This document shows, piece after piece, positions 20,994-33,362 of a stretch of 64,000 nucleotides of DNA. The notes beneath the pieces were generated by a model. It had not been told where the DNA came from and did not search any database. It was given only the letters and a program-made list of their open reading frames with translations. Each line of letters begins with the position of its first letter. The first letter of the stretch is position 1. The translations under genes and the position numbers were made by a program. Source of the stretch: Desulfatiglandales bacterium (GTDB taxonomy: Bacteria; Desulfobacterota; DSM-4660; Desulfatiglandales; Desulfatiglandaceae); the NCBI GenBank assembly GCA_963662465.1, contig OY759599.1, positions 7,808,001 to 7,872,000 of the forward strand. The letters are read 5' to 3'.

Positions 20994-22914
20994 CAGGGTG
21001 AATTTATTCTTCCGAATTATCCAAATAAAATATAAAAGTTGCGCTACATTATGGACAGAAACCCTCGGATGGTGTATATACTGTGACAGGCACCAAACCA
21101 ATTCGGGGTTTAAATTCTTGAACGTTAAGCAAGTCCGCATTCAAATAGTCCGCCCGCTTGAAGAACAACGCTTTCAGCATCTGATGCAGTCGCATCATTA
21201 TTTGGGCGCTCTTCCCAAGATCAGCGAAACCCTCTGGTATACAGCTAGACTAAATAGTGAGTGGATTGCGCTTGTCAGTTTTTCTGCTCCCGCTTTGAAA
21301 TGTACACCAAGGGACAGCTGGATCGGATGGAATTTTCGCCATCAATACGATCGACTGAAACTGGTAACCAATAACAGTCGTTTTCTAATTTTGCCCGAAT
21401 GGCATATTCCGAATCTCGCATCCCGTATCCTTTCATTATGTCGGAAGCGAATGCAGGCTGATTGGCAGGAGCGTTTCGGGCATCCGGTTGTACTCCTGGA
21501 AACCTTTGTGGACCCAAAGCAATTCCACGGAACCGTATATCGAGCGTCTAATTGGATATATGTTGGTAAAACAAAGGGTTTTCATCGAACTCGCCAAGGC
21601 TACAGCGATAAAGCGGATTCACCGAAAATGGTTTTTCTTAAACCATTGGTTTCCAATGTTCAAGCACTGTTATCCCGACCTGTTCTCAAAAAACCATATC
21701 TTACAGGAGGTTACAAAATCATGCTCAGTGCGGAACATATGAAATCTCTACCCGACTTTTTTGCTCAAATTCCCGACCCGCGTCGATCCCAGGGACGACG
21801 TCACAGGCTCTCCACTGTTCTGGCCATTGCCACCGCCGCAACACTGTGCGGAATGCGCGGTTATCTGGCGATATCCGATTGGGTAAATGGTCTTGGACAA
21901 AAAGCCCTTGAGCGTTTCCGTTGCCGATATGAAAATAAGCGCTATGTAGCTCCCAGTCAGTCTACTATCCGTGATGTTCTGGTTCGCGTTGACCCCACAG
22001 AACTCGACAAAGCTCTCCAGCGTTGGAATCTGCTTTACGGTGAACAGGACGAAAGCTTGGCCATCGATGGAAAAACCATGTGTAATGCCATCGATGAACA
22101 AGGTTATCAGACTCACATCATGAGTGCTGTCGGCCATCAAACTAAGACCTGTTACACCCAAAAAAAGTCGGTTCTCTCCCTGTAGAAGGCAAAGACGAAC
22201 TCAAGCGAACCAATGAAATCAAAACGGCTGCCCCTTTACTGGACGCGATCGATATCGAAGGCAAAGTCATTTCAGCTGACGCACTGCTAACCCAAAGGAC
22301 TTTTGCTAAATATTTGGTCGAGCAACGCAACGCCCATTACCATTTCATCGCCAAAAACAACCAGCCCACATTACTTCAAGACATTTCCCTGTATTTTGAG
22401 GGCTGCAACGATCCTGATTTCATACAACACGATGCTCCCGATCATGGTCGCATCGAAGTGCGCAAAATATGGACGACTACCGAACTTAACCTATACCTGG
22501 ATTTCCCGTATGTCGGCCAGGCTTTTATGATCCAGAGAGAAGTTACAAACAAGAAAACCGGTAAATGCACAGTTGAGGTTGCTTACGGCATAACGAGTCA
22601 ATCACCTGATCAGGCGAATCCCGAACGTGTACTTTCTATCAATCGCGGTCACTGGAGCATTGAAAACGAGTGCCATTACATCATCGACTGGAACTACGAC
22701 GAAGATCGAAGCCGAATAAGAACCGGCAATGGTCCTGAAAACATGACCAGGCTGCGTAGATTCGCGGTGGGCGTCATTAAGGCGAAAGGCGTTCGCAGTG
22801 TAGCCCAGAAAATGCGCCAGCTCACGCAGAACGTAAGGGGTGTCTTCGACTATCTCAAGATGACCAAAAATTCAGTGCCCCAAGCGTGATACCTGTTAGA
22901 ACAAATTTACCGTG
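20994..22914 (+). mobile_element. ISAs1-family element, 1921 bp
   Basis: IRs cagggtgaatttattct / agaacaaatttaccgtg (14/17); 10-bp TSD GATATTATCG at 20984-20993 and 22915-22924. Confidence 0.92.
21118..22889 (+). CDS. DUF4338-fused ISAs1 transposase, likely made by -1 frameshift at A-AAA-AAG (about 22161-22167)
   Basis: HHYLG, NNSRFLILP, ETFVDP, YRASNW (DUF4338); IPDPR, AIDGKT; -1 frame gives TNEI, ADALLTQ, KNNQP, HGRIE, HWSIEN. Confidence 0.85.
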
Positions 22915-25900
22915 GATATTATCGGGTCAAGCATTGACAGTGATGTACAGTTGACCCTCCACAAGGTGTTTGAAAAACAAGGACCGGACACATGGGAAAC
23001 CAAGGTGATTAAAGCGATTTCACTCTTGGAGATGAATGCTGAACAGCTGCCTGTGCAGTTGAGGCTTCTTTCCTCTCTTCTCTACCCGGAACTTGGCGCC
23101 CCTTCCGTTGAAGACGAGGTGAAAATCGCTCTCGAAAACCTAAACAAGGATAATTGGATTCAGTATCATGAAAAGTATGGCTGGCGAATTCAAAACAATG
23201 CAGCTCAGGACTGGAGCCGGCAGAAGAGTGAAATATCCATCCCCTCCAGTCGAATCGTTGAGCTTCTTACGGATTTGCAGAAAGATATTGTATCCACTGT
23301 GAATCAACCTACCCTCAATGGCGCCCGCTTTCCCCTGGAATCCTATTGGGGGCTCGAACAGAAAATCACAGGTAAAAACGACTCCACCAAGGTGAAACTC
23401 TGTTTTCACTGGGTTAAAAATACCAGTAAACGCAAGGATCTGGATCAATGGATAAACCTGAGCCGACAGCATAAGAGGATGTTTCATTGGGTATCCGGTG
23501 ATCCAAGCGACCTGGAAAATAAGGTGAGAGAATATGAGCGTTCGCAGAAAATGATACTCCGTTACAAAGGTCAGGGACAGCTGCAACCCCTGCAGCAGCA
23601 GCTCATGTACCAGGAACAGGCGGAAAGTGAACGTCTTTGGGAGGTGATCAAAAAGGATCTCAGACAGGTTTGGATTCGCGGAGTTTTCTTTTTTGATGGC
23701 GACATTTTTGAAATGAGTCAGGCCGGCGTCTCCTTTGAGAACGCATTAAAGACCGAAATAGAAAAGAGGATGGTGCAGCTGTTTCATAAATTTTCTCAAG
23801 GCCATATCTCAATAACGGAATCAGATTATAAGCAGCTCCTGGAAAAGGACACTTCCGGCCTGGGGACCGTGTTTTTTGATGGGGATGGCGCCCTGGGGAT
23901 TGCACAGAACGACGCGGGACGGATCATTTTTAAGTGTGACGGCCAAGTTCCCCGGGAACTATTTCAATATCTCGAAGAAAGAACATACCTGACAGGGGAA
24001 CAACTGATCAAACATTTTGGCGCGGACCCGTTCGGCTATTCAGCCACAGTGGTTAAAGCCTCTGTTTTGGGGCTTTTACGGGAGGAACGACTTCGCGTTA
24101 GTGATCACAAAAAGAATGAAATCACCTCAATTCAGGACCCGGGGGCTAAATCCCTGTTTGAACAGCATCGGGAATTCCTTCGCGCGGAGATTGAAATCAA
24201 CAAGGACACCACTCTGACAGGAAGGGACAGGACCACCTTGCGCCGATTCTTTGAGGATTCCCTGGGCTTGACCCATGTGGACAGTGCATCGGATATACTG
24301 GCAGACCTGGTTTTTAAACACTTCCCCGAATGGAAAGATAAGGTGTCAGAGCTAAACAGCAAACTCGGAAGCCTCAATATTTCCGTTCCCGTGGAGATGA
24401 AAGAATTTAACAAGGCCTTAACCGCCTGTTTGGAAAATCGTCAAGTTCAAAAAACCCTTGAGCGGTTTAAGCGAAATCTCGATGTTATCCAGAAAGGTGT
24501 TGCCAGGGTAAAGGAGCTGGAGGAAAGCCTTAATGAGGATACTGAAAAAGAGCTGCGCCGGTTAAAAAACATACTGGAGGTGCAGGCGAAGCAGTTGGAG
24601 CAGGTGGGGGAAGCATCAGCCGTTCAAGGCTCCATTTCATTCCTTGAGAACCACATGCAGGGCAGTGCCCCCTGGCGGGGATATGCGGATGTAAAGCCCG
24701 GGGCCGAACAGATTATCGTCCAATACAAGCAGATAAGAAGGCTTTACAAAGATCAGCAGCAGGAGGAACTGGACAAGCAACTATCTCAAATTAAGCTAAG
24801 GCCAGATTTTGGGGGCCTTGATCAGGATAAACAGCAGGAGGTTTTACAACGCATCCGCAAGGTATTTGTGGATGTGGACGAAGATGCCGTACAGCCTCAG
24901 CTCTTGCTGATTAAGCAGACCCCGGACAGGATTCGGGAAGCGACATCCGAGGCCCACCTTTTTGTGGACCAGTTGGTCAATGAGGCTGCGGATAATGGAG
25001 AAGATTCTGAAAAAGATCCTCCCAAACCACGCGTGCATACCATACGCCTGGGTTTACGCAACAGGATTATCAGTGATACGGATGAACTGGAGCAGGTTCT
25101 TTCCAACTTAAAAGAGAAATGTCTAAAAGAGTTAGAGGCAGGCATAAAGGTAAGGTTTGAAGAATGACTGGGATACGGGAAACAACCAAGAGAAGCTTTA
25201 AAAATTGTGTCATCGCCATAAGAAACAGGCTGTTGGAAGACTTGGAGCAGGCCTGTTATCAGCGCTATTCCCTGAATGCAAAGGACCGCGGGAAAGTTCA
25301 ATTAACCTATCAGGAAGACCTCCACTACAAAAGGCTTTTTGCCTGGCTGGAAGATTCTGGAAGGTCCCATAAAGATTGGAAATCCAATTTAAAAGATTTG
25401 GTCAAAGAACGGGCCTACACCCTGACGAACCGTCTGGTTATTCTGATGCAGCTGGAATGCCGGGACCTGAGAAAGGTGAAACTCATCAGCCAAGGCATTG
25501 AAAAGTCGGCGTTTCGTACAGAGCAGGAGTTCTTTGTGGCCTTGACCCAGGGCGATGATCAGGGATTTGGTTTTATCCTCCAGCAGGTGTGGGATCAGTT
25601 GGCCCTGGAGCTTCCCGCACTGTTTGAATACAACGAGACCCACGAATGCGTGCCTATGCCAGGACCCACACTGCTTTGGCTGATCCAGGAGCTTAATCGA
25701 GATGATCTTCAAGAGGCCTGGAAGGATGACACCACGTTAGGCTGGCTGTACCAATTCTGGAATGACCCGGACCGTAAAGCCGTGGATGCAAAGCTCAACA
25801 CCACTTCCGGTAAAGTCGAAGCTCACGAAATTTCTGAAAAGACACAGCTTTTTACAGAGCGTTATATGGTTGAGTGGCTGGTGCAGAATTCCCTGGGAGC

Positions 25901-27708
25901 CCAATGGCTTGCAATTTGTGGGAAGCATGGCTGGATTCCTCGCGCCCAGGAAAAGATTGAGAAACTTGAAATCAGAAGAAAAGAGTGGAATCAAAGGATC
26001 GCAAATGAAGAGGTCCTTGAAACTGAGCCAATGCCAATCAACGGCGATGAAGAGCTTTGGAAATATTATGTGGCCCAGGACTTAGCTGAAGAAACTATTG
26101 AATCCGCTCCGTTATCTTTAGACAAGGTTAAGGTTCTCGATCCTGCAATGGGGAGCGGACATTTTTTGGTCTATGTGTTTGATTTCCTATGGGAGCTCTA
26201 CCAGGACCAGGCCCGTCTTCAAGGGAAAGAGTACAATTCCAAACAGACAATAGACTGGATACTGAATAATAACCTTCACGGGATCGATATTGATAACCGA
26301 GCGGTCCAGATAGGGGCGGCGGCGCTTTACATTAAGGCCCAGGAGAATATGCCTGGATACAGGATCGAAGAGCTGAATCTTGTGGCTTCTGATTTGGGCT
26401 TGAGCCATCTTGAAAAAGACAATCCGGCAGTTCTTGGATTCATCAAAATCCTTGAACAAGAGCTGGGGTTGCACCAGGAAATCAGCCTTGAAATTATCAA
26501 TGCCCTGAAAGGGGCTGAGTATCTTGGTTCTTTGCTTCAAGTGGAAAAAGAGATTGAGAGGATAGTCAAGTACTATCATGCTTTCACTATGACTAAAGAT
26601 ATTAAGGAGGTGCAGGAAAAAATCCTTCAGGCGTTAACCGGTTTTATTCATGATCATGATCAGGGGGAAGACTTAGGCGTCAGATCATTGGCTGAGCAAA
26701 TGGGGAAAGGACTTAGACTTATTGAGCTGTTGGGAAAAAAATATGATGTGGTTGTGGCCAATCCTCCCTATTTAGGAATTGCAAAAGCGAGAAAGGAAAT
26801 TGCAGATCAAATTCAATTGCATTATCAGGATGGCAAGGCTGATCTCTATTCTATTTTTATGTTGAGGTCCTTTCAACTTGCACAAGATTATGGAAAAGTT
26901 GCAATGGTAACTCTTCGCGGTTGGATGTTCCTCTCCCAATTTGAAGATGTTCGCATCAAATTGTTAAGAGAGTCAAATTTCATATCTTTTGGAGACCTTC
27001 ATCTTGGAGCTTTTAATGATATGAAAGATGTTTCTGCAACAATGTTTGTTTGTCAGAAATCCAATCTTAAAAGTCTATCCACTAAAATTGTTAGACCAGT
27101 TCCAAAACTTCAGATTCGTAGAGATCAGCATCAGGTTGGTAAAAATGTAAGAGGGCTCATTCGCGCAGATGAAGTCTACACCTTCCTCCAATCCCGTTTT
27201 GCCGAAATCCCCGGTTCGCCAATAATCTATTGGTGGCCCGAAGAGTTTCGCCAGACCTATTTGAAGGCCCCGAAATTGGGTAACCTATCTGATGTTAGAC
27301 AAGGTTTGGCGTCTTCTTTGAATAATCGGTTTCTAAGAAGACCTTATGAGATAGATTTACAGAGTCTTGAGCTAAATCCTCCAAACTTTGTTGATCAAAA
27401 TGTGGATTATTTCAAATGGCAACCATATGTGAAAGGAGCTTCCGGAAAACGATGGTATGAGGGGCTTGTTGATATAATTATTTGGCAGGGAAATGGTCTA
27501 GAAGTAAAAGCATATGCAAGTAAATTATATGGTTCAGCATCAAGATCCCGGGCGGCCACCCAAAATCCCCCACCTGTGGCCACTTGAAAATCCCCCACCT
27601 AAAGAGGTTCAAAATGTAGATTTTTGATCTTCGGCTCAATTCACAAAATGGTGACAGGACGTTATACCATCTCCCAATGCAATTTAATTGAATTGGGAGG
27701 AAGAAAGG

Positions 27709-30393
27709 ATGAACGTTTTGAAGCCGGACAAGAAATCTACCATCATTACCCTACTTAAAAATGGCGTTGGTCAGCGTGAAGTACATCGTAAGACCAATAT
27801 TGACAGGAAAACGATCCGAAAATACGCAAAAGAAAGTGGCTTTTTACCCGAAGATTCCGACTTAAATTCAAGATCCCCCACCCTGGCCACCGGGGCTGAT
27901 TGCATCATCAGTGAAAATCCCCCACCCCGGCCACCGGTAAACAGCACATTCAAGGGAGAAAAACGGGCGATTCCACTCCATGCCAGATCAGCATGTGAGC
28001 CTCACCGAGAATGGATTGAAAAGCAGGTGAAGCTCGGGAGGAATGCCGTAGCGATTTACCAAGATTTGGTCGAGCGATTTGCCTTTACCCACAAATACAA
28101 CAGCGTAAAGCGGTTTGTAAGGGGACTGAGAAAAGAGGACCCCAAGCAATTCGATCGATTGGAGTTTTTACCAGGGGAAGAGGCTCAGGTAGACTATGGC
28201 ACGGGAGCCAAAACGCTTCATTCGACAGGGAAATACCGTAAAACTCGTCTCTTTATAATGACGTTGAAATACTCCAGGCGCTCATTCCGGAAAGTAGTTT
28301 GGCAATCAAGCAAAGAAACATGGGCAAAACTTCATGAGGAGTCATTTCGATATTTCGGAGGTTGCCCCCAATATGTGGTTCTGGACAATTTGAAAGAGGG
28401 CGTCATCAAACCGGATCTTTACGAACCTGAATTGAACACCGTCTATGCGGCCATGCTGGAGCATTACGGGGTTGTTGCAGATCCGGCAAGAGTTAGAGAC
28501 CCAAACCGGAAAGGGACTGTTGAAAATGCCGTACAGCATACCCAAGACACAGCTTTAAAAGGTCGCACATTTGAATCGATTGAACGACAGAATGAATGGC
28601 TTATGCACTGGGAGGAACAATGGGCTGCTCAGCGGATACACGGGAGAACCAAGCGACAGGTTGAAGAAATGTTTCAAGAAGAAAAACCGTACCTTAAACA
28701 ACTTCCCTTAACTGCATTCAGCTATTTCAGCCAAGAAATCCGTACGGTCTGGGATGACGGCGCCATTCAGGTGGGGAAATCCTATTATTCAGCCTTGCCG
28801 GCGCCCCTTTATACAAAGGTTATTGTCAGGATTTATGACAGAGAGATTGAGATTATCAATCCTGTAACAATGGAGATTTTCCGCAGGCACGCCAAGAACA
28901 GCAGGCCGGGATCTGTCAATATACCGCCGGAAGATAGGATTTTTAATCCTTCACGTCAAACAACGTATCTCTTTGCCAAAGCAGAGAGCATTGGTCCCGC
29001 AACTTTAAAATTATGCAAGGTCTTGTTTGAGGAAGAAGGCAGAACCGGTCAAAGACGAATACAGGGGATTGTCAACCTGGTCCGACATTATGAGGCCCGT
29101 TACGTGGAACAGGCCTGCATCAAAGCCAATAATGTGGGGCTGCGCAATTACAAATCCATCCGCAACCTTGTCAAAACGTTAGCCGAAAAAAACCAGGAAG
29201 AAAAGGATTCTGAGGGGCTGATTCAGGAACATAAATTAATACGCCCTCCGGAAGATTATGCTGCATTCTGGGAGCAGCACGCCGCACAGACACCGGTTTC
29301 GGAGGAAGGAGCAAACCGTTTTGTCATGCCCAAAGAGCAACTACCCGCAGTTTGGAAAAATGCAAGCTGGGAGAGAGTGATTGATGTTTTTGGCCTGGAA
29401 GTTGATGGAAACCGCCGCTGTAAGGCCAACGAGACATGGATCAAATCGCCTTTTACAGGCGAAAAAACTGCTTCGCTGCATTTGAACCTGACGGAGAATA
29501 TCTTCAAGGATTTCAGCAGTGGCCTGGGGGCGAAAGTCGGTGTACTCAATTTCTGCCAGGATCTTTTAGCGCTGCGAGGCCAGGCAATGAATTGCTATGA
29601 AGTTGCCTCCTGGATGGTGGAAAATGGAATTTCAAATTTGGATATACGTTCACGCGAGGTTAAAAACCATGTTCCTGAACTCAAAAAACCGAAAGAAAAC
29701 AAACCGATTCAAGTGGATTTAAGGCGTTTTGTACAGCCGCAACATCCAGAATTAAAACATCGACAGGTTTCAGAGGCGACATGTCGCTATCTGGGATGTG
29801 GTTTTCTCCCGGAAAGGCCGAATGGAAACAAACAGTCACCTCTCAATGGCCGGTTGGTGTTTCAAGTGCGGGGAATGTCCGGCGCTATACTGACACATGT
29901 CGGTCGTGCATTGACACTGCAGCAAGAAAAAACGAATGGGAAATACTGGAGCTTTCCGTTCTTCAAAAAACTGGAAATATACAACCAGGACAAACTGTTA
30001 TCAGATGCTTCAGCAAAGGATCAAGTTCAGCGGCTTGGCTTGGTGCTGGTAGAAGGTTTTTTTGATGTGGCAGTTTTGGTCGAATCGGGTTGTTTGAACG
30101 TCGGAGCACTGATGGGGTCGCACATGACCGAACAACAGGCAGCCCGAATAAAGTTAATCAGCTCACACATTGAGATTCCCAAAATTACCGTTTTTTTGGA
30201 CAGGGATGAAGCTGGGAGGATTGGCGCACAAAAAGCAGTTACTGTGCTGCGGAAAAATGGGTTTTCAGCCGAGGCCTTTGACTGGAACCAGACCCTTGGG
30301 TCGTCATTTGTGAAAATCCCAATGGCCGTTATGGATCCAGGCGATATGTCGTTAAGGCAGCTAAAGTGGTTGAGAAAAAAGGGAAACATTTGA
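27709..30393 (+). CDS. istA: IstA DDE transposase fused to a DnaG-like primase module (ZBD-like plus TOPRIM)
   Basis: HTH, PGEEAQVDYG, VVLDNLKEGV, PNRKGTVE; then SPFTGEKTASL..FKDFSSG, LVEGFFDV, GALMGS, FLDRDEAG, DPGD; no stop codon between modules. Confidence 0.88.
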   Translation: MNVLKPDKKSTIITLLKNGVGQREVHRKTNIDRKTIRKYAKESGFLPEDSDLNSRSPTLATGADCIISENPPPRPPVNSTFKGEKRAIPLHARSACEPHREWIEKQVKLGRNAVAIYQDLVERFAFTHKYNSVKRFVRGLRKEDPKQFDRLEFLPGEEAQVDYGTGAKTLHSTGKYRKTRLFIMTLKYSRRSFRKVVWQSSKETWAKLHEESFRYFGGCPQYVVLDNLKEGVIKPDLYEPELNTVYAAMLEHYGVVADPARVRDPNRKGTVENAVQHTQDTALKGRTFESIERQNEWLMHWEEQWAAQRIHGRTKRQVEEMFQEEKPYLKQLPLTAFSYFSQEIRTVWDDGAIQVGKSYYSALPAPLYTKVIVRIYDREIEIINPVTMEIFRRHAKNSRPGSVNIPPEDRIFNPSRQTTYLFAKAESIGPATLKLCKVLFEEEGRTGQRRIQGIVNLVRHYEARYVEQACIKANNVGLRNYKSIRNLVKTLAEKNQEEKDSEGLIQEHKLIRPPEDYAAFWEQHAAQTPVSEEGANRFVMPKEQLPAVWKNASWERVIDVFGLEVDGNRRCKANETWIKSPFTGEKTASLHLNLTENIFKDFSSGLGAKVGVLNFCQDLLALRGQAMNCYEVASWMVENGISNLDIRSREVKNHVPELKKPKENKPIQVDLRRFVQPQHPELKHRQVSEATCRYLGCGFLPERPNGNKQSPLNGRLVFQVRGMSGAILTHVGRALTLQQEKTNGKYWSFPFFKKLEIYNQDKLLSDASAKDQVQRLGLVLVEGFFDVAVLVESGCLNVGALMGSHMTEQQAARIKLISSHIEIPKITVFLDRDEAGRIGAQKAVTVLRKNGFSAEAFDWNQTLGSSFVKIPMAVMDPGDMSLRQLKWLRKKGNI

Positions 30394-30450
30394 TTTCCAT
30401 CGCCACGTTCTCGGTGGCGCGGAAATTTGTTTAACCTAAACGGCCATCCG

Positions 30451-30926
30451 AAGGAATCGGGCTTATGTATAAGCGAATATGGTCGGACTTTTTGAATCTC
30501 GTTACACGATAATCATAGGGCTTGATTGTTTTGGAGGTGAAAATGGGAGGCGGAAAACGTATGGGAGCCAGTCGAAAAAAGAAATCAGATCATTTGAGAC
30601 GTGAACTGCTGACAATTCGATTGCCGAAGTGGATGATTTCACAGCTCAAAAACAAATGTGAAATTGGCTATTTGATCGAGGATCAATTAAGGAATCGGGC
30701 TTATGTATAGGCGAATATGGTCGGACTTTTTGAATCTCGTTACACGATAATCATAGGGCTTGATTGTTTTGGAGGTGAAAATGCGAGGCGGAAAACGTAC
30801 GGGAGCCGGTCGAAAAAAGAAATCAGATCATTTGAGACGTGAACTGCTGACAATTCGATTGCCGAAGTGGATGATTTCACAGCTCAAAAACAAATGTGAA
30901 ATTGGCTATTTGATCGAGGATCAATT
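30451..30926 (+). repeat. 238-bp tandem direct duplication
   Basis: 30451-30688 and 30689-30926 are near-identical with a few substitutions. Confidence 0.92.
30543..30710 (+). CDS. Small basic RHH-like DNA-binding protein, copy 1 (altered C-terminus)
   Basis: GGAGGTG RBS; GGKRMGASRKK, LLTIRLPKW. Confidence 0.55.
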   Translation: MGGGKRMGASRKKKSDHLRRELLTIRLPKWMISQLKNKCEIGYLIEDQLRNRAYV

Positions 30927-30978
30927 GAGGAAGATAGATTTTTTGGATATCCCGGATGACTATGACATTGATAACTGA
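30781..30978 (+). CDS. Small basic RHH-like DNA-binding protein, copy 2 (complete)
   Basis: GGAGGTG RBS; RGGKRTGAGRKK motif followed by a TIRLP beta-strand and helices. Confidence 0.65.
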   Translation: MRGGKRTGAGRKKKSDHLRRELLTIRLPKWMISQLKNKCEIGYLIEDQLRKIDFLDIPDDYDIDN

Positions 30979-31001
30979 AATCGAGAAAGGAGAAACTGAA
31001 T

Positions 31002-31775
31002 ATGCCGATGTCAATGCAGGAAATAGAGAAAAGTCTAGGAACGCTACGTTTAAGCGGTATGCGAGCAACATTAGAAACCCGAGTGATACAGGCAAATCAA
31101 GGAGAATCTTCTTTCCTGGAAGTCTTTTCATGCCTGCTTCAGGATGAGTTAGATTACAGGCGGTCGTGCCTGATAGAACGTAGATTTAATGCTTCCGGTC
31201 TTCGTGAGAGAAAAACATTGACTGAGTTTGATTGGGGCTTTAATCCAAGACTTCCAAAAAAGGAAATTTTTGAACTGGTGACCATCAAATTTATACACAA
31301 CGGTGAAGACGCACTCCTGATCGGTTCTCCCGGGACTGGGAAAAGCCATATCGTTAAAACAATTGCTCATGCTGCAACACAGGCATGCCATCAGGTTGTT
31401 TATCGTGAGGCCCATACTTTCTTTGAAGATGTCTTCGAAGCAGCCCAAACAGGGAAGACAAAAAAAATAACAAAGCTTTTTTCAGAAGCAGACTTGCTAA
31501 TAATAGATGATCTTTTCCTGAGAAAAAGGGTCCCTGAACATGCGGCAGATGATCTTCTTGATATCATACTGAATCGTTATTCCAAAAGAAAAAGTACACT
31601 CATAACATCAAACCGTCCGGTGGAGGACTGGGGTAAACTGCTCAGAGACAATGCCGCATCCTCTGCGATCCTTGACAGGTTGCTCCACCGAGGCCATTTG
31701 CTCAAATTTGAAGGAAAAAGCTACAGGCTAAAGGAGGCTGCAGAAAAACTTGCCATAGGGAAGAAAAAAGAATAA
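31002..31775 (+). CDS. istB: IS21 helper ATPase IstB
   Basis: EFDWGFNP, GSPGTGKSH, LLIIDD, TSNRPVEDW, AILDRLLH, GKSYRL; AAGGAG RBS. Confidence 0.95.
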   Translation: MPMSMQEIEKSLGTLRLSGMRATLETRVIQANQGESSFLEVFSCLLQDELDYRRSCLIERRFNASGLRERKTLTEFDWGFNPRLPKKEIFELVTIKFIHNGEDALLIGSPGTGKSHIVKTIAHAATQACHQVVYREAHTFFEDVFEAAQTGKTKKITKLFSEADLLIIDDLFLRKRVPEHAADDLLDIILNRYSKRKSTLITSNRPVEDWGKLLRDNAASSAILDRLLHRGHLLKFEGKSYRLKEAAEKLAIGKKKE

Positions 31776-33362
31776 AGTGTAACCGTTCTGTCGCTGAAGA
31801 TCTTTCCAATGCCACGGTCAAGATCCTACATGGCCACCTTCACAGGTGGGGGATTTTGGGGTGGCCACAAGTGGGGGATTTTGAAGTGGCCATCCGGGTC
31901 AAGAACAATAAAATCACAAGATAAGTACTTCAAACAAGGCCTAGCCTTCAGCTACATTGGTACTAATGGCTTTCTATGTCGTCTGCGAAAATTCAAATCT
32001 ATCTTTGACGTCTCAGGTTCTTCTATTTTCTGTGATAACCCTGAAAAAATGCAGGTGATTCTCAGTTCTAACTTATCAGGTTATGTCTCACAATCTCTCA
32101 ACCCTACTGTCAATAATCAGGTAGGGGATATTGAGAACCTCCCCGTCCTGGACCAACTTTCAGACTACACCATCTACCTCAAACGAGCAGAAACCCTGTA
32201 TGACCAATTATTTGCCTCCACAGAATCCAACCTGGAATATACATATCAGCACCTGAGCTCAGAAAAGTTTGAAGTGGAAGAGGCTCGCATACGGGATGAG
32301 ATTGATAAGGAACTGCTACAGCATTTTTCCCCGGATAGCGTCCAGGCAATTTATCAAGAGATCGGAGAATCTGCCTTTGATCTCCCTAAATGGGATGGCC
32401 AACAAGAATCAATCCCCCAAGACTTTATAGAAGCCTATCAAGCTGGGGAATCTCTTCTGGCCTTAAGCCGTAAGTATCGCCTTCACCCTGACAGCCTGTT
32501 GAAAATCAAAGAGAAGCTGGGCCTCATCCACGAAGGTCAGCGAAAAGACGAGGCATTTAAAAACCTCTCCTGGGCCATGGGGGTTCTGTTGGGCCGGTTT
32601 GATGCTCAGACTGGAGGCTTGGTGGATCTGGCTGATCAGCGAAGAAAGGAACAGAACATTTCTAAAGATCCCGAAGCGCCACAGGGGCATGGCCATGGCC
32701 TCCTTTATCTATCTGCACTGGATGACCATGAAGGCTTAAATCGTGAAGAGCAACCCAATGTTGGGAAGGCATGTTTGCAGACCTTGAAAGCGATTCTCCA
32801 ATACAAATGGGGCGCTAAAAAATGTACTGAACTCTGGGACGAGATTCAGAATGCCCTTGTGTTGGACTGCCGCACGGACTGGACACCTTCCCAAGGAATC
32901 TACAGGCACTGAGTCCTCCGGAAACGAAAAAACCCTCCATTCTACTCCGTTTTTACTCCCTTTTGGCTGATGTGCCGGCACTTCGGAACGCATATGATCC
33001 AATGCAACGATTGTGCACCGCATACTCCCCCAGCATAAAAGAAAGGGAAACCTCAACCATGTCTGATCCACAGCAAAAGGAGCATCTGCACCCCTAGGAA
33101 GCCGCGAACTATCGCATAGAGGTGGAAGGGTTGCTGGAAGAAAGCGGGTCGGATCGTTTTCCGGGGATGCAAATCCGTTCCCGGAAAAGGGCGGATGGCT
33201 GCCCGGTCGTCTCATGGATCAATCGCAATTATCAGGGGTGTTGAACGGTCTTACGGAACTGAATTTGCCCATCTTGAAGGTTGAAAATATTGATGAAGAG
33301 TTCGGTCCCGAGGTCCTTCTGAATAACGGTTAGTTTTCTTTCAATCCAAAAGGAGGAGCAAA

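Follow-up and report, generated by a model that had tools for sequence, protein, structure and literature searches.

We analysed a 64,000-nucleotide stretch of DNA (hereafter the window) from a Desulfatiglandales bacterium (contig OY759599.1, positions 7,808,001 to 7,872,000 of the forward strand), which carries an IS21-family insertion sequence (IS) whose first gene encodes a complete IstA transposase fused in frame to a DnaG-type primase module and whose second conserved gene is istB. The module consists of a zinc-ribbon-like domain without metal ligands and an RNA-polymerase/Toprim domain with all of its acidic residues. A first-pass annotation, made by a model from the letters of the window, had proposed this fusion and had suggested that the element may prime its own replication. 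The features of the element and of the fusion gene are as follows:

27547-31898, + strand: whole IS21-family element, delimited by three identical copies.
27547-27600, + strand: left end, with the terminal inverted repeat and two subterminal direct repeats (..CCAAAATCCCCCACCTGTGGCCAC..); repeat families I1-I3 and D2, in an architecture common to fused and plain relatives.
27709-30393, + strand: istA-primase fusion gene; the frame is open here and in 15/15 related genome loci examined (880-927 codons).
27709-29343, + strand: IstA part (aa 1-545), with a helix-turn-helix (HTH) region, DDE core (D162, D226, E272), beta-barrel, C-terminal tail and variable linker (~aa 521-545); NF033546 match and plain IstA proteins 50-67% identical.
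29344-29628, + strand: zinc-ribbon-like domain (aa 546-640) without Cys/His ligands; alignment to Aquifex DnaG, confident AlphaFold model and Foldseek match to 1d0q.
29629-29712, + strand: variable inter-domain linker (aa 641-668); pLDDT below 50 (model residues 107-118), length variation in alignment A1 and dN/dS of 0.13-1.5.
29713-30390, + strand: DnaG RNA-polymerase domain including Toprim (aa 669-894), with R715, R721, G732-R733, K745-Y746, E782, D786, D831, D833, D876 and D879; TIGR01391, Toprim_2, Toprim_4, 2au3 and Foldseek matches.
31002-31775, + strand: istB, AAA+ helper ATPase of 257 aa (PF01695, E 7.2e-51; NF038214, 212.5 bits against a cut-off of 200).
31841-31898, + strand: right end, with the inverted repeat and two subterminal repeats; repeat families D3 and I1-I3 and comparison of the copies.

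Open reading frame (ORF) analysis gave a single stop-free frame for the fusion gene, with 894 codons and a stop. Two starts are possible in this frame, which ends at 30393 on the plus strand, a TTG at 27688 (901 aa) and an ATG at 27709 (894 aa); the ATG was taken as the start because the conserved N-terminus of the relatives in alignment A1 is MNVLKPDKK (all begin MNVLKP). The first-pass annotation had warned that a stop at 29290-29325 would undo the fusion. A Logan contig from run X1, probably the source sample, was identical to the window over 27570-30502 with 0 differences, and a contig from run X3 (same organism label, other sample) was likewise identical, with 0 differences, over 29235-29442; there is therefore no hidden stop at 29290-29325, and the ORF calls, the profile matches and these independent contigs agree on one uninterrupted IstA-primase frame. 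The possibility that the fusion is an artefact of assembly or annotation, or a dead gene, is practically nil: three identical copies lie in a one-contig genome, the independent X1 contig reproduces the sequence, full-length relatives number in the hundreds, and the gene is under purifying selection, so that this explanation is refuted. Contigs from RNA libraries (X9 and X11) matched parts of the gene's relatives at 90-99% likeness, none of them spanning 29321-29362; such libraries may contain DNA, and these matches do not establish expression.

The IstA part matched the NCBIfam model NF033546 ('IS21 family transposase') over aa 14-333 with 261.6 bits (cut-off 160), and it can be aligned to plain IstA proteins until ~aa 521-536, placing a complete IstA at aa 1-~535. 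A word-indexed search with aa 540-894 returned 566 proteins at E <= 0.001, the best 120 of which are 56-96% identical in the module. Among these 120, 95 are full-length fusions (at least 845 aa); the N-terminus is missing from most of the remaining 25, which are shorter, and alignment gaps fall at the DDE positions in 12-19 rows. The DDE residues D162 (in VDYG), D226 (LDNLK) and E272 (KGTVE) are invariant in the best 120 relatives wherever a row covers them. Pfam scans of the fusion protein did not list rve, and PF00665 is precomputed for most of the relatives. The complete IstA with DDE motifs that had been read from the letters is thus an IS21-type DDE transposase by both the model match and the invariant residues.

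In the C-terminal part, TIGR01391 (dnaG) matched at aa 698-861 (E 5.4e-21; profile positions 184-337 of 414) and Pfam Toprim_2 and Toprim_4 at aa 778-858. A profile of the primase module and its relatives (alignment A2) was used for a profile search of the PDB and for an AlphaFold model. The profile search placed first Aquifex aeolicus DnaG (2au3, zinc-binding and RNA-polymerase domains) with an E of 6.5e-39 over profile positions 12-327, followed by DnaG RNA-polymerase domains from five other species. The model had a mean pLDDT of 91.9, its sole disordered part being the inter-domain linker, and Foldseek against the PDB returned 2au3 (E 2.3e-16), then DnaG catalytic cores, and then the T4, T7 and Twinkle primases. 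In this search, DnaG RNA-polymerase domains scored between E 1e-9 and 1e-16, the isolated DnaG zinc-binding domain 1d0q was also recovered, and all matches listed with E <= 0.001 (ranks 1-39, with gaps in the ranks) were primases or primase-helicases of DnaG, T7, T4 or Twinkle type.

The residue alignment to solved DnaG structures paired RLVFQVRG with RIMFPLKN, GRAL..GKYW with GR..PKYLNSPE, VEGFFDV with LEGFMDV, FLDRDEAG with FDGDFAG (the DnaG FDGDxAG motif) and MDPGD with MDPCD of M. tuberculosis DnaG, and thereby covered the motifs RxxFxxR, GR..KY, EGxxD, DxDxAG and DPxD. The module thus contains a DnaG-type RNA-polymerase domain with both the Toprim acidic residues and the motifs of the N-terminal subdomain, and the intact TOPRIM domain claimed at first pass is confirmed by the Pfam and TIGR01391 matches, by Foldseek and by this alignment. 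Among the best 120 relatives, E782 and D786 are kept in 118, D831 and D833 in 118, D876 in 117 and D879 in 115; R715, R721 and G732 are present in 120/120, and the residues of the nucleotide/template motifs as a whole (R715, R721, G732-R733, K745-Y746) in 119-120, with position 745 being K or R in 119/120.

A Toprim centre might also have nuclease activity and cleave the non-transferred strand at the ends of the element, in the manner of TnsA in Tn7; it would then turn replicative transposition into cut-and-paste. Toprim domains are indeed nucleases in some families, and RNase M5 appeared as a weak Foldseek match (rank 47, E 1.9e-2); the OLD-family nucleases are a further example. However, the fusion carries a whole DnaG RNA-polymerase domain with the N-terminal subdomain motifs and a zinc-ribbon-like domain rather than a bare Toprim fold, and the strong structural matches are all primases, which makes a nuclease very unlikely.

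The segment KSPFTGEKTASL..IFKDFSSG aligned to the zinc ribbon of Aquifex DnaG, NCPFHPDDTPSF..IFKCFGCG (CPFH...CFGCG). The fusion has S580, T583, D601 and S604 where Aquifex DnaG has the four zinc ligands C, H, C and C; a CHC2 ligand set is absent, though the fold is predicted and aligned, in agreement with the Cys-less CHC2-like domain noted in the first reading. The replacement is itself conserved: S580 and D601 are invariant in the best 120 relatives, position 583 is T or S in all of them, S604 is kept in 118/120, and Cys or His occurs at these positions in 0/120. At the other end, the DnaG matches stop at position 337 of 414 in TIGR01391 and at residue 321 of the 407-residue 2au3 chain, and the fusion protein ends 15 aa past D879; because it ends so soon after the last acidic motif, there is no C-terminal helicase-binding domain. 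The loss of the zinc ligands and of the helicase-binding domain would suit a module that no longer makes primers and instead binds single-stranded DNA or fork proteins, thereby steering insertion towards replication or synchronising the two, or helps the transpososome to assemble. However, the six Toprim acidic residues are kept in 115-118 of the best 120 relatives, down to 56% identity, the basic and aromatic residues of the DnaG nucleotide/template motifs are kept in 119-120 of 120, and dN/dS is as low as in the transposase, the pattern expected of a working active site. We consider a purely non-catalytic role rather unlikely.

The limits of the element were set where the identity among its three copies ends. 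These copies are 100% identical over 4352 bp, have different flanks and are all chromosomal in the one-contig, 8.16-Mb genome; the IS is thus functional and recently mobile, and it was the fused form that transposed, as the first-pass annotation had expected. The intact ends it had described were located at 27547 and 31898. Their inverted repeat is 40 nt long and 90% complementary, each end also has two subterminal direct repeats, and two further repeat copies lie at 27868 and 27912, within the 5' portion of istA. As in the IS21 family, the element has inverted ends with several subterminal repeats, a short target duplication, an IstA DDE transposase and, downstream of istA, the gene of an IstB AAA+ helper. 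The flank of the window copy is as follows:

27540-27546, no strand: left flank TCAAGAT, an imperfect target duplication with 31899-31905 (TCAAGAA), by flank comparison.

The target duplication claimed for this copy therefore held in part: TCAAGA is present on both sides but is offset by one extra T on the left, whereas the other two copies have clean 5-bp duplications, TCCAC and CCGTC. The element ends in CCCGGG...CCCGGG, and the terminal CA-3' dinucleotide of IS21 is absent. Fused or plain elements of this IS21 clade (L025, L043, L071) end in CCCGG.../...CCGGG, also without the terminal CA; because plain relatives have the same ends, the CCCGG ends are a trait of the clade and are unlinked to the primase.

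Partial copies of the same IS are also present in this genome (G000). A solo left-end fragment of 565 bp lies at G000:C1:2861219-2861783 (100% identity), and solo right-end fragments lie at 6457888-6458354 (462 bp) and 2544432-2544727 (296 bp) with 96-97% identity; these are remnants of older copies or of deletions. The X1 Logan contig inside the IS had a word depth of 225, compared with 34 in the two flanking contigs (~6.6-fold, with 3 full copies in the assembly), and as contig word depth is no copy number, the excess is compatible with either the presence or the absence of extra or extrachromosomal copies.

Relatives were then sought in genomes with alignment A1, using one genome per species, and the best 80 of 512 confirmed relatives were compared. 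The module was present in 19/80 loci, 16 of them intact; of the other three, L012 is interrupted by the end of its contig, L020 is a remnant and L079 is in pieces. In 17/19, istB follows the module directly. The 15 intact fused loci examined each have a single open frame. The remaining 61/80 loci are plain IstA-IstB elements with an IstA 50-67% identical to that of the window. Titled records were mostly metagenome-assembled genomes (MAGs) of Desulfobacterota type (Desulfatiglandales, Desulfobacteraceae, Desulfospira, Desulfobulbaceae, Syntrophobacter, Desulfobacca), and a few carried the labels Acidobacteria, Pseudomonadota or Flammeovirgaceae. Of 401 sampled genomes of the phylum, only four contained the family: G000 (3 places, with 901-codon frames), G223 (946 codons), G279 (three free-standing copies of 347-369 codons) and G366 (a 389-codon frame). 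The other listed matches in this sample were of ordinary dnaG type (E ~1e-37 to 1e-45, frames mostly ~570-690 codons), and the host's own dnaG is a 632-codon frame elsewhere in the genome.

The ratio dN/dS, which had been proposed at first pass as a check on the primase part, was 0.05-0.26 in both primase domains, close to the 0.08-0.18 of IstA, and 0.07-1.5 in the two linkers (0.07-0.80 in the IstA-tail linker). Only pairs with an IstA dS <1.6 were used, L056 was omitted as a near-duplicate of L011, and several values with a dS >2 or of -1 are saturated and not meaningful. As judged from these substitution patterns, the primase module is under purifying selection in the whole IS21 sub-lineage.

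The wider family of the module was defined by an exhaustive HMMER search over 1.84 billion representative proteins, which gave 2771 proteins at E <= 0.001 of which 70 reach E <= 1e-30. These include many free-standing proteins of ~340-420 aa that align over the whole 354-aa module with 35-45% identity; most of them also lack the full CHC2 set, and a distant member (P0239) keeps C..H..C..C. A metagenome scan with alignment A3, built from proteins of the free-standing type, kept 80 loci: 50/80 have the fused IS form beside IstA and/or IstB, and in 30/80 the gene is free-standing with IstA/IstB not detectable. Homologous elements thus keep the module in the protein, genome and metagenome searches alike (95 of the best 120 at full length, 19/80 and 50/80 loci). 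One 383-aa protein (P0121) that is 60% identical to the module begins exactly at the linker (MKASRYIMSRDQMQ..), perhaps because it is a split version or because the gene call was truncated.

Twelve free-standing loci had enough flank for their neighbours to be read. In seven (L130, L131, L133, L143, L144, L145, L148) a MobA/VirD2 relaxase and/or MobC/NikA lies within 4.5 kb, three of these seven also having a T4 coupling protein, with ParA in L130 and L133 and Rep3 in L130. L142 adjoins a serine recombinase and L128 a tyrosine integrase, and in L149, L183 and L187 no relaxase, mobilisation, coupling-protein or recombinase genes were found among the neighbours. The three G279 copies adjoin HTH-type genes and not IS21 genes. 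A plasmid collection gave 6 records at 24-31% identity, none covering at least 80% of the query, and a phage collection gave 20 records, with 21-29% identity among the 15 matches listed; in both collections these were only distant primases. Since free-standing relatives adjoin relaxase and mobilisation genes, the module was probably captured from a plasmid or integrative and conjugative element (ICE) primase; the simplest history is that one IS21 sub-lineage acquired a helicase-independent primase of mobilisation type.

A quick IstA tree was built from 66 of 70 rows (4 duplicates out), excluding IstA matches that contain a stop or do not span residues <=15 to >=505, and its groups were counted after L012, L020 and L079, with truncated or decayed modules, had been reassigned from plain to fused. 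The fused elements fell into two groups (12 and 7 rows) inside a 40-row clade of low resolution, and plain Syntrophaceae/Smithellaceae elements form the sister clade of the 12-row group (support 87). Both a single capture with later loss and two captures are compatible with this tree.

The neighbourhoods of the free-standing genes bear on a further explanation, in which the active primase would serve a replicon or DNA transfer by priming incoming conjugative single strands or by helping a carrier plasmid to replicate, and the fusion would merely keep the module within a minimal mobile unit. It agrees with the relaxase, MobC/NikA, T4 coupling protein, ParA and Rep3 genes beside the nearest free-standing relatives, and with the transposition of plain sister elements that have no primase. 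However, in the 16 intact of the 19 module-bearing genome loci the module is always in frame with IstA and never a separate gene, and the three copies here are chromosomal. Moreover, a passenger needs no covalent tether, as part of the fusion it can be no more abundant than a tightly controlled transposase, and no protein encoded by the element is available to act until the incoming strand has become double-stranded. A role in replicon maintenance or transfer is on these grounds unlikely.

We instead favour the explanation that the primase carried by IstA primes DNA synthesis on transposition intermediates, a function that we put at even chances from the sequence evidence. According to excerpts of PMC11208146, IstA assembles as a tetramer on the paired ends and has a flexible C-terminal region, which is not visible in the structure of the transpososome/strand-transfer complex and is given no defined role there, and IstB is a close paralogue of DnaC/DnaI that clamps and bends duplex target DNA and activates IstA, helicase loading not being shown in those excerpts. 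In the proposed mechanism, the IstA tetramer that pairs the two IS ends would carry four flexibly tethered, helicase-independent primases to the transposition intermediate, where they would lay RNA primers on single-stranded DNA exposed while the element is copied. The template could be the displaced strand in the proposed copy-out step or the lagging strand of forks begun at strand-transfer joints, and a host polymerase could then complete the second strand without prior assembly of a DnaB-DnaG primosome. Such self-priming fits a module whose relatives work on transferred single strands. IstB would retain its usual role in target capture and bending and in the activation of IstA. The first-pass annotation had found the pairing of a primase with the DnaC-like IstB suggestive; the paralogy is stated in PMC11208146, but the excerpts describe target clamping and bending and IstA activation as the role of IstB, which leaves that argument weak.

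Several observations weigh against self-priming. The TIGR01391 score of 74.9 bits is far under the equivalog cut-off of 283.6, so that the module does not qualify as a dnaG equivalog. With all four zinc ligands replaced, primase activity may be altered; the zinc-binding domain of DnaG takes part in template recognition. Decayed modules occur in two related elements (L020, L079). Plain relatives with the same end sequences occur in multiple identical copies without a primase, and because these primase-less close relatives multiply, the module is not required for transposition in the clade. An abutted right-end/left-end junction, as expected of a circle or tandem dimer, was not found with a regular-expression search (<=30 nt) in the genome or in 203 loci, and no right-end/left-end joint appeared among the Logan contigs, which drop rare forms and could easily miss one. 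The IS21 transposition pathway is itself unsettled. Overall, a role of the primase in transposition is plausible, and the broader proposition that the whole IS21 branch consists of self-priming replicative transposons, whose transpososome delivers a helicase-independent primase that starts second-strand synthesis, is put forward tentatively, at slightly less than even confidence.

The IS21 variant described here, whose transposase bears a primase, is genuine, conserved and recently mobile. Full-text literature searches found no published description of an IstA-primase fusion, in line with the first-pass remark that none was known. The sources name these proteins 'IS21 family transposase', 'transposase' or similar; as only the transposase is named, the primase is invisible in genome annotation. 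DDE-type transposons are thought to leave all DNA synthesis to the host. If the proposed function is correct, an insertion sequence can take over the first replication step at its own intermediate, and the fusion would be the first known case of a replisome enzyme carried by a DDE transposase. Toprim point mutants would then offer a genetic handle on whether IS21 moves by replicative copy-out/paste-in, since mutating three acidic residues should alter the transposition products only if DNA synthesis belongs to the pathway. The zinc-free yet strictly conserved zinc-ribbon-like domain (S/T/D/S) is of interest for template recognition by DnaG-type primases.

Between istA and istB lies a gap of 608 bp, compared with ~25-60 bp in most relatives, which holds a duplicated small ORF:

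30451-30926, + strand: 238-bp tandem duplication, two copies 98% identical, each with a small ORF (30522-30710, 62 aa; 30760-30978, 72 aa), by ORF and repeat analysis.

The element of L011/L056, which is 97% identical, contains the 238-bp unit once, whereas the other fused relatives have no such small ORF; the ORF is a passenger specific to this lineage and outside the conserved design. Its neighbours in the protein atlas were unnamed small-protein clusters (0.92-0.95), with ribbon-helix-helix, CcdA and NikA-like proteins at only 0.86-0.89, a lead only. A 69-aa homologue of the small ORF lies just 3' of istB in a second, ordinary IS21 element (L009 1497-1706, minus strand). The same 261-bp stretch has about 30 matches at 76% identity across this genome, of which the one in L009 was examined, and the small gene may travel with two different IS21 lineages in this genome. 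Adjoining that copy of the second element is a 349-aa ORF (L009 168-1217, minus strand) that on inspection of its sequence alone has the look of a type I Cas7/Csy3-type protein.

The window copy interrupts the pglX methyltransferase gene of a BREX system, downstream of brxC (22912-25167):

25164-27546, + strand: 5' part of pglX, the 3' part being 31899-32912; NF033455 and NF033452 match both pieces in consecutive profile ranges.

Excision of the IS plus 7 bp in silico restored a 1129-codon pglX frame. The BREX-6 and BREX-1 NCBIfam models matched below their own cut-offs. Since pglX is interrupted by the IS, this phage-defence system is probably inactivated in the strain.

Compared with the canonical IS21 family (IS21, IS5376), the element shares an IstA DDE transposase followed by an IstB AAA+ helper, both above their NCBIfam cut-offs, as well as inverted ends with doubled subterminal repeats and short target duplications. 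In contrast, IstA is here longer by ~354 aa of primase, and the ends are CCCGG.../...CCGGG instead of the terminal CA given for IS21 in excerpts of PMC11208146. With 4352 bp, the primase module and the duplicated small ORF, the element departs from the two-gene, ~2-2.7 kb format of the family; other fused relatives span ~3.7-3.9 kb as judged from end-repeat matches, and three plain relatives measure 2556-2713 bp from paired copies.

Short primases are known from mobilisable and conjugative elements, with RP4 TraC and ColIb Sog as the textbook cases. The free-standing, mobilisation-linked primases found here share with the module 35-45% identity over its 354 aa, the two-domain build and the absence of a helicase-binding domain, and most lack the full CHC2 ligand set; priming on single-stranded DNA would presumably be helicase-independent in both. 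They differ in being separate genes of ~340-420 aa beside a relaxase, MobC, T4 coupling protein or recombinase, none of them beside IstA/IstB, whereas the module here is fused to IstA inside an IS. Cellular DnaG shares the fold and the catalytic motifs of the zinc-binding and RNA-polymerase/Toprim domains; the module differs from it in having neither the Cys/His zinc ligands nor the DnaB-binding domain and in scoring below the dnaG equivalog cut-off.

Primases of the PrimPol type are structurally unrelated to DnaG. By name, the IS excision enhancer IEE belongs to that type, and like the fusion it is a primase-type enzyme functionally linked to insertion sequences, being associated in excerpts of bioRxiv 10.1101/2023.06.07.543989 with IS that move via circular copy-out-paste-in intermediates; in those excerpts it is host-encoded and lies outside the element. 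T7 gp4 and Twinkle, which were weaker structural matches, resemble the fusion in that a DnaG-type primase is covalently tethered to a DNA-handling enzyme that brings it to its template, the partner there being a hexameric helicase and here a DDE transposase.

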